From an uncultured Candidatus Saccharibacteria bacterium (lineage in GTDB: Bacteria > Patescibacteriota > Minisyncoccia > Phycocordibacterales > CAIZLB01): DNA of 58,270 nt. This document shows positions 10,565 to 56,140 of the stretch, in pieces (positions within the stretch are counted from its first letter, which is position 1; the number at the start of each line of letters is the position of its first letter). The notes under the pieces were generated by a model. The model was given only the letters and a program-made list of their open reading frames with translations, searched no databases and was not told where the DNA came from. Where the stretch lies: assembly GCA_964467385.1 (NCBI GenBank), contig CAYXQC010000005.1, forward strand, positions 1 to 58,270. The letters are read 5' to 3'. Both the position numbers and the translations under genes were made by a program.

Positions 10565-10699
10565 AATTTCTCCTCAGTAATATGAAGGTTGTTGTTTTTT
10601 GACTTAAGTTCAGTGCCACTTGGCATCGAAATATTGTCACAATATTATATAAAAGTCAATACATGTGAATTTCCCCTTCTGCCGTATAATTGTAAATCT

Positions 10700-11712: not shown

Positions 11713-11786
11713 TGGGCGATAGAGGGTTCGAACCTCTGAACCTTCCGCACGTCAAGCGGACGCTCTACCAACTGAGCTAATCGCCC
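11713..11786 (-). tRNA. tRNA-Val (anticodon GAC), no encoded CCA
   Basis: Reverse complement GGGCGATTAGCTCAGTTGGTAGAGCG TCCGC TTGACGT GCGGA ... AGAGG TTCGAAC CCTCT ATCGCCC A. A cloverleaf can be drawn by hand. Confidence 0.9.
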
Positions 11787-11914: not shown

Positions 11915-11986
11915 GGCCCTATCGTCTATCGGTTAGGACGAAAGCTTTTCAAGCTTTAAAGCCGGGTTCGACTCCCGGTAGGGTCA
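11915..11986 (+). tRNA. tRNA-Glu (anticodon TTC), no full CCA encoded
   Basis: GGCCCTA..GTCT..GGAC G AAAGC TTTTCAA GCTTT AAAG CCGGG TTCGACT CCCGG TAGGGTC A. All four stems pair. Confidence 0.9.
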
Positions 11987-27630: not shown

Positions 27631-28971
27631 TTAGATAATCCCTTTGTTCTTCATGTTGTTAAGCTTGAACGCATTAACTTTTGACATGAATTCTGCTGGC
27701 ATATCTGCGGCTTTGATTCCCTTCTTTCGAGCAATCATGTATGCAGCGAAAATGCTCCAGAGAACGAGACCAAGTGTAAAGAGTGTCATCTTGAGACCGA
27801 AACTAATACCAGTTTCTGGGACCTGTGAAAGGAATACTCCTGACACTGGTGTACCAAGATTCTGATCTCGGATCACTGTGACGTTAGACTGAACACCTAC
27901 AATGTTTGTAGAACATGATGTCGTGAATGACTGACCATTTACAAATCCAGTTACAGTTGCAGTCTTGTATCCAGGAGTGTTGTATGATCGGACAATTGTC
28001 TGACCGTTACCGTAAAGGTTATCAGTTCCAGTCCATGAGTATGAGGTGTTACCGTAGTATGAACCGTTATTGTAGTTGTAATTATTGTTGTATGTAGGAT
28101 ATACAGTCCATGTTACATTTTGACCAACAACAGCATTTGTAGGATTAGCTACACAGTACGCACCAATGTTTCCATTGTAGGTATCTCGAACTTCAACATT
28201 ACATGATCGAGTAATAGTCTGTGAACCAGATCGGATAGTTACTGTCGCTGTCTTCATACCAGGGTATGAATATCGTCCAGTAAAGCTCTGTGATGATGAG
28301 TTAACACCATTATCACCTGTCCATGAGTATGTGTATCCAGATGTACCACCTGTTGCAGAAGCAGAGAATGATACGTCCTGATTTACATATACAACTGAAG
28401 GGCTAATAGTACAGTTACCATCAAGGTTTGACTGAGTATTTGTAGTACCTGTTCCACCACCATACACCACAAGGTTGATTCGAGCGTCGTTGTTGTTTGT
28501 AGGATTGAACGTGTTCGTAATCGTATTTGTGTTCGTGTTGTTGTTTGTATTTACATTCGCGTTTGTATTGTAGATGTAATCGTATCCAGCTGATGGAGTG
28601 TATGTGTATCCACCACCGTATCCGCCGTAGCTACCGTATGAGTATGGCTGGTATGAGTAACCGCTGTAGTCTGAGCTGCCCCAATTGTAACCGTAGTCAG
28701 ATGAAGGATAATACTGGTCATATACTGGTGCAAATGAATATGAGTCATACGATGGATAGTACTGATCATATACAGGAGCGAAAGAGTATGAATCATATGA
28801 CGGAGTATACTGATCATAAACAGGAGCGAAAGAGTATGAATCTCCTGAAAACCAGTCATCTGCACCAAAACCATAATCACTTGCAAATGCAGCTGAAGGT
28901 GTCACAGCGAAAACCAAGGCAATAATAATTCCCAAAACTGAGTTTTTTGTTGTTTTATGTGTGTTTAACAT
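27631..28971 (-). CDS. Secreted surface protein: signal peptide, Tyr-rich tandem repeats, two PKD-like Ig repeats, and a C-terminal VPETG motif followed by a TM segment and basic residues (candidate sortase substrate)
   Basis: Signal peptide VLGIIIALVFAVTPSAAFA. Three copies of SYSFAPVYDQY(T/Y)PSYD. Repeats of the type C..SP..V.VNQDVSFSA...YSWTGD...YKTATVT. VPETG is encoded at 27808-27822 and followed by LFTLGLVLWSIFAAYMIARKK. Confidence 0.7.
   Translation of the reverse strand: MLNTHKTTKNSVLGIIIALVFAVTPSAAFASDYGFGADDWFSGDSYSFAPVYDQYTPSYDSYSFAPVYDQYYPSYDSYSFAPVYDQYYPSSDYGYNWGSSDYSGYSYQPYSYGSYGGYGGGYTYTPSAGYDYIYNTNANVNTNNNTNTNTITNTFNPTNNNDARINLVVYGGGTGTTNTQSNLDGNCTISPSVVYVNQDVSFSASATGGTSGYTYSWTGDNGVNSSSQSFTGRYSYPGMKTATVTIRSGSQTITRSCNVEVRDTYNGNIGAYCVANPTNAVVGQNVTWTVYPTYNNNYNYNNGSYYGNTSYSWTGTDNLYGNGQTIVRSYNTPGYKTATVTGFVNGQSFTTSCSTNIVGVQSNVTVIRDQNLGTPVSGVFLSQVPETGISFGLKMTLFTLGLVLWSIFAAYMIARKKGIKAADMPAEFMSKVNAFKLNNMKNKGII
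28696..28839 (-). repeat. In-frame 48-nt tandem repeat (3 copies) inside the surface-protein gene
   Basis: Codons 45-92 encode SYSFAPVYDQYTPSYD / SYSFAPVYDQYYPSYD / SYSFAPVYDQYYPSSD. The DNA copies are near-identical. Confidence 0.85.
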
Positions 28972-31164: not shown

Positions 31165-31425
31165 TCAATGCTTCGTCGCCACCTTCAAAATCTGATCATT
31201 CAACTCATCATCAAGATCCTCGAGAAGTTTTCCAATAAAGGTATCAGCATCCTCTGGATTTTCATCGTCCCCATTATCAGGAATTTTTTCCATAACTTTA
31301 CTTGTTCGAGCAAGAAGATTCTTGAGCTTCTTATCCAGCTCAACATTTATCTGTTTTGCATTATCAATATCTTTTGCAAGTTTTGTTTTAATTTGTTGTG
31401 CACGCCGTGTGATAGATGTTGTCAT
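31165..31425 (-). CDS. Hypothetical small acidic protein
   Basis: 86 codons. It starts 29 nt after the stop of the 560-aa gene on the same strand, so the two are probably co-transcribed. Confidence 0.5.
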   Translation of the reverse strand: MTTSITRRAQQIKTKLAKDIDNAKQINVELDKKLKNLLARTSKVMEKIPDNGDDENPEDADTFIGKLLEDLDDELNDQILKVATKH

Positions 31426-31453
31426 ATTTTTATATTAAAATTTATATTACAAA

Positions 31454-33722: not shown

Positions 33723-33900
33723 GAGCTTGAGTTTCTGGATAGGGTTTTCTAGGCCCGTTGAGATTGACTGAATACGAACATACTAACATAATAATATATA
33801 AAAGTCAATGGTAGCGAAAATTACTCCTGTCAGATAATTTCTGGCCACTCGTCAGCATAATAGCTGTATAATCCCCTATTTCCTGATATAAATAGTACAA

Positions 33901-48901: not shown

Positions 48902-50524
48902 TTATCTTCCCGGCACAAACGTAAGTGCTTTCCCTACCGCTCCACCTCGCCCTGTTCGGCCGATTCGGTGCACATAGTCATCGTATGTCATTGGAAGTTC
49001 GTAGTTGATTACATGAGTTACCCCTCGAATATCGAGACCTCGCGCCGCAACATCTGTTGCAACAAGTATATTGATTGCTTCTGTTTTGAAAAGATTAAGA
49101 GCTTTTTGTCGCTGATAGTGATCTTTGTCACCGTGAATTGACGAAGCCTTGAATCCAGCTGTTGAAAGCTCATTTGTAAGTCGTTCAACACCAGCTTTAG
49201 TCTGTCCGAAAATTAATACTTTTTTGAACTCTTTTTCATCTTTCAAAAGTCCTGCAAGTTTTTCAAACTTATTTTCACCTCGTGCGATTCGTACAACGTC
49301 CTGATCGACACTCTTTGAGGTATCACCAGATTTTACTGAAATCGTAATTGGGTTTGTCAAAAATTCTCCCACGAGGTTTTGAACTTCTTTTGACATCGTA
49401 GCTGTGAAGAAAAGAGTCTGTCGTGTCTTTGGAGTTTTACCAATGAGATATCGCATTTCGTTGATGAATCCCATATCGAGCATTCGATCTGCTTCATCGA
49501 GCACAACATTTGTAAATTTTGAGAAGTCGATATAACCCTTTTCGCCAAGATCCTTGAGTCGTCCAGGTGTACCGATTACGAAGTTGTTGAAATATCGAAG
49601 TTCAGAAATCTGCTTTCGAATATGAGCACCTCCGACGCAACATACTGAGTACATTTTTGTCTGTTTAATAAACATCAAAAGTTCTTCCTGAATCTGGATC
49701 GCCAATTCTCGAGTCGGCGCCATGATCAGTACTTCTTCTTTTGGATTATTGATGATTTTATTTACAAGAGGAATAAGGAAAGCGATAGTTTTTCCAGTAC
49801 CAGTGTCTGCAATACCGATTACATCTTTTCCTTCAAGTGCATGAGGAATGGCACCATCTTGAATTGGGCTCGGGTTTATAAAACCTTTAGCTGCAATTCG
49901 TGTTTTGATTTCTTCAGCAATATTAAAATCGTTGAATGTATGTTTCGGTTTAAACTCAACCACTTTTGCTGCGAGTGCAGCATCAGTATGTGCAGCTTTG
50001 TTAATATATTTACTGTAATTATCTCCGTGACTTGTATTGACGGCTTTGCCACCAAATCGTCGGCCATTTCCCCCGAATCGTCCACCACGTGAATAACCAC
50101 CTTGGCCGTATCCACCACCAAAACCGCCACGTCCACCATATGATGAGCCACCTCGTGAATAACCACCCTGTGAGTAGCCTGCATTTGAGTAACCACCTCG
50201 ACCGTAGCCACCACGTGATTGACCTCCTTGTGAGTAACCACCTCGATCACCATATGATGAAGCACTATTAGATCCACCACGTGGCCCATACGAAGAACCT
50301 CCTCGTGAAAATGAAGATGTCCGTGGAGCAAAAGATGAATGGGTATGAGCAGAAGCTCGTGGAGCATGTGCAGATGTTGATGATATAGTTCTTGGACCTG
50401 ATGATGTAGAAGCTGTTCGAGCTCCTCTTGGTACAAATTGTGCAGCAAAAGTCCGCGCATCCATTGGAGGCGTCGGCCGTTTACCCGGAGTCGGTCGTCG
50501 TGAAAAATTTGATTGTTTGTTCAT
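48902..50524 (-). CDS. DEAD-box ATP-dependent RNA helicase with a long N-terminal Arg/Gly/Ser/Tyr-rich region
   Basis: Q-motif GFINPSPIQ, motif I ADTGTGKT, motif II VLDEADRM, SAT-equivalent TAT (FFTATMS), and HRIGRTGR. Roughly the first 170 residues are low-complexity (GGYSQGG, RGGYGRGGY). Confidence 0.9.
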   Translation of the reverse strand: MNKQSNFSRRPTPGKRPTPPMDARTFAAQFVPRGARTASTSSGPRTISSTSAHAPRASAHTHSSFAPRTSSFSRGGSSYGPRGGSNSASSYGDRGGYSQGGQSRGGYGRGGYSNAGYSQGGYSRGGSSYGGRGGFGGGYGQGGYSRGGRFGGNGRRFGGKAVNTSHGDNYSKYINKAAHTDAALAAKVVEFKPKHTFNDFNIAEEIKTRIAAKGFINPSPIQDGAIPHALEGKDVIGIADTGTGKTIAFLIPLVNKIINNPKEEVLIMAPTRELAIQIQEELLMFIKQTKMYSVCCVGGAHIRKQISELRYFNNFVIGTPGRLKDLGEKGYIDFSKFTNVVLDEADRMLDMGFINEMRYLIGKTPKTRQTLFFTATMSKEVQNLVGEFLTNPITISVKSGDTSKSVDQDVVRIARGENKFEKLAGLLKDEKEFKKVLIFGQTKAGVERLTNELSTAGFKASSIHGDKDHYQRQKALNLFKTEAINILVATDVAARGLDIRGVTHVINYELPMTYDDYVHRIGRTGRGGAVGKALTFVPGR

Positions 50525-55651: not shown

Positions 55652-55948
55652 ATGGATACAAATCAAATGAATTCTATCTACCGACCAATGACACCAAGAC
55701 CAAAAGGCCATCGAACTTCACTAATTGCGATTATAGTTTTCTTAATCATTGCGATCATAGTTGCGGTACTCGGATTTGGACGCATTAAAGATATCAAGCA
55801 CGATGATGCACAAAGAGGGGCGCAGCAAAACAGTCAAGCACCAAGAAGTGCACCACTTAGTGACTCACAGGTATACTCTGAAATTGAAGCCGTATCAACA
55901 ACTGACATAAGTGGGGATACAGAAGGCCTTGATTCTGAATTTAAGTAA
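55652..55948 (+). CDS. Hypothetical small single-pass membrane protein
   Basis: TM segment LIAIIVFLIIAIIVAVLGF. It starts 22 nt after the previous gene. Confidence 0.5.
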   Translation: MDTNQMNSIYRPMTPRPKGHRTSLIAIIVFLIIAIIVAVLGFGRIKDIKHDDAQRGAQQNSQAPRSAPLSDSQVYSEIEAVSTTDISGDTEGLDSEFK

Positions 55949-55971
55949 GATGTAAATTAATCAACCTCTTC

Positions 55972-56041
55972 ATTGCATGAAAACAGAAAATTTCTACTGA
56001 AATTTTCCTCTGCTCGTTGCAACTCGCAAGTTTCAAGCAAT
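55972..56041 (+). repeat. Structured repeat element, copy B
   Basis: The 40-nt core at 55992-56031 is identical to copy A. Closing stem ATTGCATGAAA (55972-55982) / TTTCAAGCAAT (56031-56041), 10 of 11 bp. Inner hairpin GAAAATTTC-TACT-GAAATTTTC (55986-56007). Confidence 0.85.
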
Positions 56042-56110
56042 TCATCGGGTAATTAATTTATATGATTAACATAATGCCAACTTTGTAAGACTTAATCGGA
56101 CTGACTATAC

Positions 56111-56140
56111 AAAAATACCGCCTATCTCTGGCGGTATTTT
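56111..56140. terminator. Bidirectional terminator
   Basis: AAAAATACCGCC tatctct GGCGGTATTTT. Confidence 0.8.

Follow-up and report, generated by a model that had tools for sequence, protein, structure and literature searches.

The element at positions 55972-56041 of the window, by which is meant the whole 58,270-nt stretch of Candidatus Saccharibacteria DNA analysed here, is one copy (copy B) of a non-coding repeat of about 80 bases that is found only in a group of uncultivated Patescibacteria, at least 55 copies of which were collected in related contigs. With about even confidence, copy B is read as a single insertion of a MITE-like, structured dispersed repeat that would home to, or survive only in, the loops of hairpins. 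To our knowledge, the genomes of Patescibacteria (CPR) are tiny and contain very little non-coding DNA, and hardly any ncRNAs or repeats have been described in them.

Direct reading of the sequence shows that all the stems and coordinates given for copy B by the first-pass annotation are exact. The complete repeat unit extends slightly beyond them and is laid out on the minus (sense) strand in the order ATGA-P1-P3-P2-P1'-GAAGAG. Copy B, its surroundings and the two other copies of this genome are composed as follows.

55966-56045, minus strand: whole 80-nt repeat unit of copy B, with edges taken from the three-way alignment with copies A and C.
56031-56041, minus strand: 5' arm (sense) of the closing helix P1, AUUGCUUGAAA, forming 10 of 11 possible pairs with 55972-55982.
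55972-55982, minus strand: 3' arm (sense) of P1, UUUCAUGCAAU, pairing with 56031-56041.
56010-56029, minus strand: the nearly invariant hairpin P3, UUGC-GA-GU-UGCA-AC-GA-GCAG, in the minus-strand fold.
55985-56008, minus strand: P2, a 10-bp hairpin with the loop AGUA, which is the 9-bp hairpin described earlier plus one G.U pair.
55953-55961, arm read on the plus strand: left arm of the outer inverted repeat, TAAATTAAT, locus-specific.
56052-56060, arm read on the plus strand: right arm of the outer inverted repeat, ATTAATTTA, locus-specific.
56112-56140, no strand assigned: plain bidirectional terminator AAAATACCGCC-TATCTCT-GGCGGTATTTT found by the terminator scan, outside the repeat, used as the 'empty' comparison hairpin.
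21632-21712, plus strand (sense): copy A, an 81-nt unit flanked by the convergent genes for RNase R and SMC, scoring 74 bits.
510-584 of locus L077, on the same contig, some 5 kb to the left of where the window starts: copy C, scoring 56 bits and partly decayed.

The sole mismatch in the closing stem of copy B is A.A, and its perfect 9-bp hairpin GAAAATTTC-TACT-GAAATTTTC (55986-56007) is brought to 10 pairs by the wobble 55985/56008. The core segment CTCTGCTCGTTGCAACTCGCAAG, a 23-mer spanning 56008-56030, occurs exactly twice in the window (plus strand at 56008-56030, minus strand at 21647-21669), against 0.00 occurrences expected from 100 shuffles. A covariance model built from copies of other genomes matches copy B at 55970-56043 on the minus strand with 80.4 bits (E = 5e-18), and copy A is the only other scoring match that it returns in the window.

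The stop codon of the 98-aa ORF lies at 55946-55948, and a terminator-like hairpin is found 70 nt 3' of copy B, 56112-56140 being the only call of the terminator scan in this region. P1 is followed by TCATCGGG on the plus strand and by GAAGAGGTT on the minus strand, neither of which provides a U-tract. The earlier statement that copy B is not itself a terminator holds: the plus-strand transcript of the 98-aa gene crosses it before reaching 56112-56140. This mRNA necessarily carries copy B in antisense in its 3' UTR and ends at 56112-56140, and the sense version, as read from the DoxX gene, lies beyond that same terminator. No indication of a role of copy B tied to the 98-aa gene emerged from this computational analysis.

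Across the family, the closing helix P1, the nearly invariant hairpin P3 and the 10-bp hairpin P2 (loop AGCA or AGUA) meet in a three-way junction, the sense-strand consensus being P1 - A/C - C-UUGC-GA-NN-UGCA-N'N'-GA-GCAG - A - P2 - GUG - P1'. P3 combines a U.G pair, present in 45 of 45 distinct copies, with tandem G.A/A.G pairs and a UGCA loop; an extra hairpin turns the junction into a four-way one in eight copies, and the median P1 reaches about 28 bp. In the alignment of 47 copies (45 distinct), 99.2% of cells hold standard pairs, and double-sided changes are seen in 22 of 28 pairs among the distinct copies; no shuffle reached the observed pairing or covariation score, and sliding the partners brought pairing down to 37-53%. 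Such changes affect 12 of the 12 modelled pairs of P1, 8 of the 10 pairs of P2, in which 99.8% of cells are paired and pairing is kept through 29 different sequences, and 2 of the 6 pairs of P3, whose two apical pairs covary (GU/AC, AC/GU, GC/GC) with the loop and the tandem G.A pairs remaining fixed. The conserved structured element proposed in the first-pass annotation is thereby borne out, its closing stem and first hairpin being real and abundantly covarying, and its invariant part is indeed the segment containing GTTGCAAC. Since the outer inverted repeats differ from locus to locus, much of the 'covariation' of P1 reflects different host hairpins; that of P2 and P3 is internal to the unit.

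The states of the P3 hairpin are also exchanged as a block. The copy at L020 2875-2948 is identical over the 74 model positions to those at L024 1091-1164 and L039 4644-4717, except for four apical P3 bases. This switch (GU/AC versus AC/GU) corresponds to four concerted transitions, and the genome of L010 contains both states; this suggests short-patch conversion between copies.

Regarding the strand, the conserved fold fits the one opposite to that chosen in the first-pass annotation, that is the minus strand of the window for copy B. The three non-complementary positions of the invariant near-palindrome read, without exception, G.A, A.G and U.G on the sense strand, and U.C, C.U and C.A on the strand chosen earlier. 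In the same line, P1 contains 32 G.U against 14 A.C under a symmetric extension rule, and P2 13 G.U against at most 1 A.C. The sense strand gives the better fold in 16 of the 17 copies tested, with energies of -29.3 (sense) versus -19.5 kcal/mol for copy A and -22.9 (sense) versus -19.7 kcal/mol for copy B. From these pairing patterns and modelled energies, the conserved fold very probably resides on the minus strand for copy B and on the plus strand for copy A, an assignment kept short of certainty because the energy gap is partly one invariant feature counted many times.

Three copies in total (A, B and C) are present in this genome. Copies A and B form a 64-nt inverted pair with 91% identity and, among all copies, each is the nearest relative of the other (P2 92%, inner P1 64% identical); their P1 helices differ by three fully compensated pairs, and the first hairpin of copy A is weakened, as stated earlier. 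Copy C is flanked by a gyrA gene and a methyltransferase gene. Alignment of the three delimits a common unit of 80-81 nt, running from ATGA to (G/A)AAGAG with 79-86% identity, and the flanks show 32-47% identity, which equals background, the drop being sharp at both edges. The TCAT reported after copies A and B, in the orientation used at that time, is confirmed and also follows the third copy, outside the window; it is the edge of the shared unit. Each of the three units ends in a 10-13-bp inverted repeat that is similar among them and different in other subfamilies (e.g. CTATTGAATGC/GCATTCAATAG). A target-site duplication was looked for in the flanks of the three copies and no direct repeat was found (left and right flanks TTAA and AAGA for A, CCCG and GTTG for B, TTCG and AAAA for C). 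All three copies lie 17-40 nt beyond a gene end.

Besides its terminal repeat, each unit is enclosed in an inverted repeat of its own locus, ATTCTT/AAGAAT for copy A, TAAATTAAT/ATTAATTTA for copy B and AATAAATT/AATTTATT for copy C, with lengths of 6, 9 and 8 bp (P = 0.055, 0.002 and 0.015 versus shuffled flanks, respectively). The one around copy B is perfect over its 9 bp, a length reached by 0.2% of shuffled flanks, and forms a host hairpin (55953-55961 with 56052-56060) whose loop contains copy B. Removal of the unit leaves, at sites A, B and C alike, a sequence that folds into a simple hairpin whose loop contains the junction. Near tRNA genes, the inner unit CTATTGAATGC...GCATTCAATAG is found within three different canonical terminators, AAAACTCCGCTT/AAGCGGAGTTTT, AAACCCCGTC/GACGGGGTTT and AAAATTCTACCT/AGGTAGAATTTT.

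Filled and empty sites are observed as well. In a relative whose RNase R is 80% identical, the rnr-smc spacer measures 6 nt and has no element, versus 131 nt with copy A here; the 872-nt spacer upstream of rpsA is devoid of a copy in this genome, and four relatives have one there. In the close relative represented by L074 (93% identity in the adjacent flavoprotein), a family member occupies the tip of the hairpin that comes first after the DoxX stop, and the outer stem of this hairpin, AAAATACC/GGTATTT, is that of the plain 56112-56140 terminator of the window; the inner GCC/GGC pairs of the filled and empty DoxX hairpins differ, and the two do not form a clean insertion pair. L074 has a second, different variant around the site of copy B. 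The absence of copies from 45 kb of three close relatives is not significant by itself. The sharp edges, the locus-specific nesting and the filled and empty sites argue for a dispersed repeat of insertion type over a 3'-UTR regulator specific to one gene.

Some copies are decaying, among them copy C (56 bits) and those at L009b, L015b and L049b (20-42 bits). As for individual loci, the two family members downstream of DoxX in L074 occupy 1-63 and 147-228, and P3 of one of them bears a 9-11-nt apical insert whose GCGACUGGC loop also occurs in L013 3891-3971. The copies at L029 2407-2480 and 3444-3517 have an identical P1 and a similar tRNA-trailer flank each, which indicates a local duplication. 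A degenerate core fragment, cattgcgagttgcaacc, is located at about 1300 in L038, just upstream of a full copy.

The extent of the family was evaluated by several searches. A scan of species-representative genomes with a 19-nt core gave 16 loci, 15 of them true, with several uncultured-bacterium MAGs contributing multiple loci apiece, and a degenerate core pattern gave 42 loci in metagenomes, of which about 36 were true. The covariance model R1 added divergent copies lacking the exact core; since the collection scans needed this exact core, the true diversity of the family is under-sampled. Pairs of copies within 0.1-2.5 kb are found in 9 loci. With Rfam 15 at the gathering threshold, the window and 15 loci returned only tRNA and RNase P; at E <= 10, copy B and the intact copy of L020 returned only sub-threshold chance or generic hairpin matches, the spurious ones being of the long-hairpin type, such as miRNA precursors. 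A literature search for the core sequence and the assembly accessions gave no match. A phage origin was also considered and rejected, all 6 core-pattern matches in IMG/VR being due to chance and no copies being found in viral contigs. The closest named homologues of the RNase R and flavoprotein of the window belong to Candidatus Taylorbacteria, Paceibacterota, Parcubacteria and Patescibacteria, which places the family in Patescibacteria of the Paceibacteria/Parcubacteria type, and motif-bearing contigs come from relatives of the window organism, encoding proteins that are 81-84% (ribosomal protein S1), 72% (RNase III) and 58% (SMC) identical to those of the window.

ORF calls in the collected loci are crude and some counts are inflated by orthologous loci, which applies to the gene contexts given here. 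The orientation of the element relative to its neighbouring genes is random: 26 upstream genes share its strand and 24 lie on the other one, the corresponding figures for downstream genes being 25 and 20. The fixed position after a stop codon that had been suggested does not exist family-wide, as distances range from 6 to more than 400 nt. About 12 copies lie between divergent genes and many are upstream of genes; in about 12 loci (e.g. L013), the sense strand runs antisense to an operon too tightly packed to accommodate a promoter. Housekeeping genes surround the element, with typA, infB, rpsA and rpsL recurring downstream, fmt recurring 14 nt upstream of the element, and tRNA genes recurring on the other strand, where they end 9-20 nt away. 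Several species retain a copy at the same locus, which is upstream of typA, rpsA or rpsL, or downstream of fmt. No transposase, integrase or reverse transcriptase appears among the matches listed for the neighbours (25 of 87 families; 80 nearest neighbour genes), nor do such families appear among the Pfam calls for the window; because no mobility gene is found among the neighbour families listed, the element looks non-autonomous.

In terms of transcription signals, a dedicated promoter for the sense RNA was sought and rejected, a -35/-10 scan into the element being equal on both sides (7.50 vs 7.45). A -10-only scan over 5-19 nt gave 29 vs 18, which is not significant. U-tracts after the element are equal on both sides, with no asymmetry, and do not correlate with transcription entering the element (odds ratio 1.2, P = 0.68); A-tract/U-tract flanks are present on about 40% of copies. 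No replication-strand bias was detected with gene strand as a proxy. Outward promoters are more frequent on the sense 3' side (17 vs 7, of 52), a difference partly inflated by orthologous loci. These good sigma-70-like sites start 0-13 nt after P1 (e.g. L014, L030, L045 and L048) and stand before rpsA, typA, infB and rpsL. Finally, the hypothesis of P1 arms acting as guides for nearby targets was discarded, the longest local matches (8.0 nt) being no better than those of shuffled sequences (7.2 nt) and the sole guide-type match being L029's own duplicate.

In the favoured reading, a unit of about 75-85 nt would end in a short terminal inverted repeat (inner P1) closing a three-way junction with P3 and P2, and would occupy, in one orientation or the other, the loop of a locus-specific hairpin that existed beforehand and would often be an A-tract/T-tract intrinsic terminator beside a gene or tRNA end. 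The composite looks like a long hairpin with a branched tip because the unit is in the loop of the host hairpin. The repeat would spread by transposition-like or conversion-like copying into single-stranded hairpin loops and would be tolerated there thanks to a fold compact enough for the host hairpin to close nonetheless; its invariant P3/junction core may be the structure, as ssDNA or RNA, that is recognised by a putative copying or maintaining factor. Copy B would thereby be carried passively, in antisense, on the mRNA of the 98-aa gene, with termination left to 56112-56140. As neither a duplication, nor a terminal sequence common across subfamilies, nor a candidate transposase was found, no mechanism of movement is put forward. 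Several data speak against mobility: core invariance and same-locus retention look more like purifying selection on a host function, the 17 vs 7 asymmetry of outward promoters is not predicted by a purely selfish element, and the three P1 differences between copies A and B are fully compensated.

The main rival, less likely but serious, is a host-functional structured RNA, with the minus strand as the functional one for copy B, in which a protein-binding three-way junction would be held on a long double-stranded stem, and which could act either as a Y-shaped small RNA released by RNase III cleavage of P1 or in cis, in processing, stability or insulation at transcript boundaries. The P3/junction core stays the same between genomes that share 55-84% protein identity, P2 and the apical P3 covary, the tandem G.A and U.G features are typical of RNA, and G.U pairs are in excess on one strand. 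Several genomes keep copies upstream of typA, rpsA, rpsL and infB and immediately after fmt, the sense 3' side tends to be followed by promoters, the median P1 has a length sufficient for RNase III, and the gene for this enzyme occurs in the window. Such an RNA sits less well with the lack of orientation bias and the dozen or so loci antisense to tight operons (L013), with the lack of promoter or terminator asymmetry, with the existence of decayed copies and of filled and empty sites, and with a P1 'covariation' largely due to different host hairpins; for copy B, moreover, a good terminator stands between it and the only upstream gene on the same strand. The original proposal, a plus-strand cis-acting element of the 3' UTR set at a given distance after the stop codon and binding a protein through single-stranded CTCTGCTCGTTGCAACTCGCAAG, is very unlikely. 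Copy B is certainly within the transcript of the 98-aa gene ahead of the terminator, P1 and P2 fold equally on the plus strand, conserved unpaired junction nucleotides are common in functional RNAs, and copies A, B and C all follow a gene end by 17-40 nt; however, no orientation or stop distance is favoured family-wide, many copies are upstream of genes or between divergent genes, wobbles favour the other strand (32 vs 14 in P1, 13 vs at most 1 in P2), and the invariant mismatches become G.A/A.G and U.G on that strand.

A purely DNA-level function, as a cruciform or ssDNA hairpin used by a recombinase, a nucleoid protein or a replication factor with no RNA role, is very unlikely. It would agree with an orientation independent of transcription, with the long, nearly perfect inverted repeats, with copies paired within 0.1-2.5 kb at 9 loci, with P3 states swapping as a block, which suggests recombination between copies, and with copy A lying exactly at a switch in gene strand. 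Yet the P2/P3 pairing with wobble and G.A features needs single strands, no bias in replication direction is seen (gene strand proxy), no recombinase occurs nearby among the neighbour families listed, and the hairpin base is variable here, whereas it is conserved in ssDNA recombination sites such as attC. That the element would be nothing but an elaborate intrinsic terminator is very unlikely as well. In favour, about 40% of copies have A-tract/U-tract flanks, several are the only hairpin directly after tRNA genes or stop codons, and in L074 a hairpin of the composite kind stands where DoxX has its terminator. Against it, neither strand of copy B offers a U-tract and a distinct terminator comes after it, U-tracts are uncorrelated with incoming transcription (odds ratio 1.2, P = 0.68), some 12 copies are placed between divergent genes, and a terminator has no need of an invariant 23-nt tip. 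Finally, it is doubtful, though conceivable, that the core is an active nucleic-acid machine or a protein-recruiting structure, belonging to a new kind of loop-homing mobile element or to a new CPR ncRNA class. In its mobile version, homing may take place with neither target duplication nor conserved ends; in its RNA version, the core may be displayed on RNase III-length stems beside translation genes and tRNAs.

Other features of the window were recorded alongside. Near 21600, at copy A exactly, genes pass from a plus-strand block to a minus-strand block, and GC and AT skew change sign at the same point, between the convergent RNase R and SMC genes; this switch could be a replication terminus or just an operon boundary. 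The RNase III gene (Ribonuclease_3 and dsrm domains; 25286-25972, minus strand) lies 3.6 kb from copy A and adjoins a nusB-NUDIX fusion gene, this gene order being conserved in relatives. Two sets of in-frame low-complexity repeats were seen, one with a 48-nt unit present three times at 28695-28838 (ORF 27631-28971, minus strand) and one of 30-nt period at 50082-50251 in a DEAD-box helicase ORF (48902-50524, minus strand). An AT-rich 30-nt repeat, ATATTGTCACAATATTATATAAAAGTCAAT, occurs at 10631-10660, 31416-31445 and 33780-33809 with 73-83% identity between copies and looks like a shared promoter. Two divergent tRNA genes occupy 11713-11786 (minus strand) and 11915-11986 (plus strand).

The significance of the family lies in a sharply defined, strongly covarying element, absent from Rfam 15, with dozens of copies across related uncultivated lineages and the unusual habit of lying at the tip of other hairpins, among them terminators that belong to tRNA and housekeeping genes. 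If mobile, it would be selfish DNA persisting in streamlined genomes by hiding where insertions are least harmful, and would offer a handy marker of strain-level genome dynamics; if a host RNA, it would constitute a new class of RNA tied to the loci of translation genes. In both cases, annotators can use the covariance model to avoid mis-reading such sites as long terminators or microRNA-like hairpins.

Comparison with known systems set several candidates aside. REP/REPIN sequences, whose stem is conserved among copies and which go with a GTAG or CGTC tag at one end and a linked RAYT gene, were rejected, P1 being the variable part here and no GTAG/CGTC tag standing at the hairpin foot. Integron attC sites have conserved R''/R' boxes at the hairpin base and a variable tip, and were rejected as the arrangement is reversed here, with a variable base and an invariant tip. 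The hammerhead ribozyme (CUGANGA...GAAA, with essential G5/A6 positions) and the K-turn (with its 3-nt bulge) were rejected likewise: CUUGCGA...GA resembles the former in length only and the G5/A6 positions are absent, and the tandem G.A pairs come without the 3-nt bulge. TIGR-Tas arrays consist of tandem units with two 8-12-nt spacers flanked by box C/D motifs and an adjacent Nop-domain gene (PMC12045711). Such box C/D-like guides were dismissed too, the copies being solitary and devoid of array or spacer architecture. IS200/IS605-derived elements (PATE) show no duplication, have subterminal hairpins and insert 3' of a fixed tetra- or pentanucleotide. The repeat shows no duplication and has two internal hairpins; it has no common target tetranucleotide (TTAA, CCCG, TTCG), and its termini pair together, which is not typical. 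With Rfam-type structured RNA motifs, it shares a compact fold of several stems, conserved nucleotides in the junction and loops, and strong covariation, but it differs from them by its lack of a consistent genetic context and of an Rfam 15 match.

Palindromic or hairpin targets in intergenic DNA are a likeness with IS1397/ISKpn1, IS621 and class C group II introns, which are nevertheless autonomous and protein-coding, no such gene being linked to the repeat among the families listed. Class C group II introns are located next to terminators and insert after the hairpin, not in its loop. REP palindromes serve as IS targets, with IS621 referenced in that connection (PMC3184786); they are the palindromes into which IS1397/ISKpn1 and IS621 insert. 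MITEs have terminal inverted repeats conserved among copies, together with target-site duplications (PMC3184786). The repeat resembles them in being short, non-coding, multi-copy and present or absent between relatives, whereas its termini differ between subfamilies, its interior is conserved and no duplication is seen; it is not filed as a MITE member because it lacks a target-site duplication and its termini, similar among copies A, B and C, differ in other subfamilies. Among MITEs, the Correia/NEMIS, ERIC and RUP elements are non-coding, multi-copy sequences of less than 200 bp whose terminal inverted repeats fold into an RNA stem-loop, and Correia elements are RNase III substrates.

The nearest described systems are bcr1 and SPRITE. 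The bcr1 element of the Bacillus cereus group, of about 155 bp, is a non-coding mobile interspersed repeat whose distribution is not conserved between relatives, and its RNA adopts a cruciform-like fold with two stem-loops and compensatory changes, some copies losing stability (PMC3184786). Both repeats keep a branched fold through compensatory changes, but bcr1 is flanked by 5-bp direct repeats, whereas no duplication is seen around the Patescibacteria repeat; bcr1 is also about twice as long, belongs to a different phylum, has no sequence similarity and is not reported in host hairpin loops. SPRITE is a small dispersed terminator-like repeat at the 3' ends of genes that converge (PMC3184786), the likeness residing in the association with terminator-like hairpins and in copies A and B of the window both lying between convergent genes. 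In contrast to SPRITE, which mimics a terminator by itself, the Patescibacteria unit forms a branched tip inside a locus-specific hairpin; no family-wide bias towards convergent ends is seen, and a U-tract is lacking from copy B.
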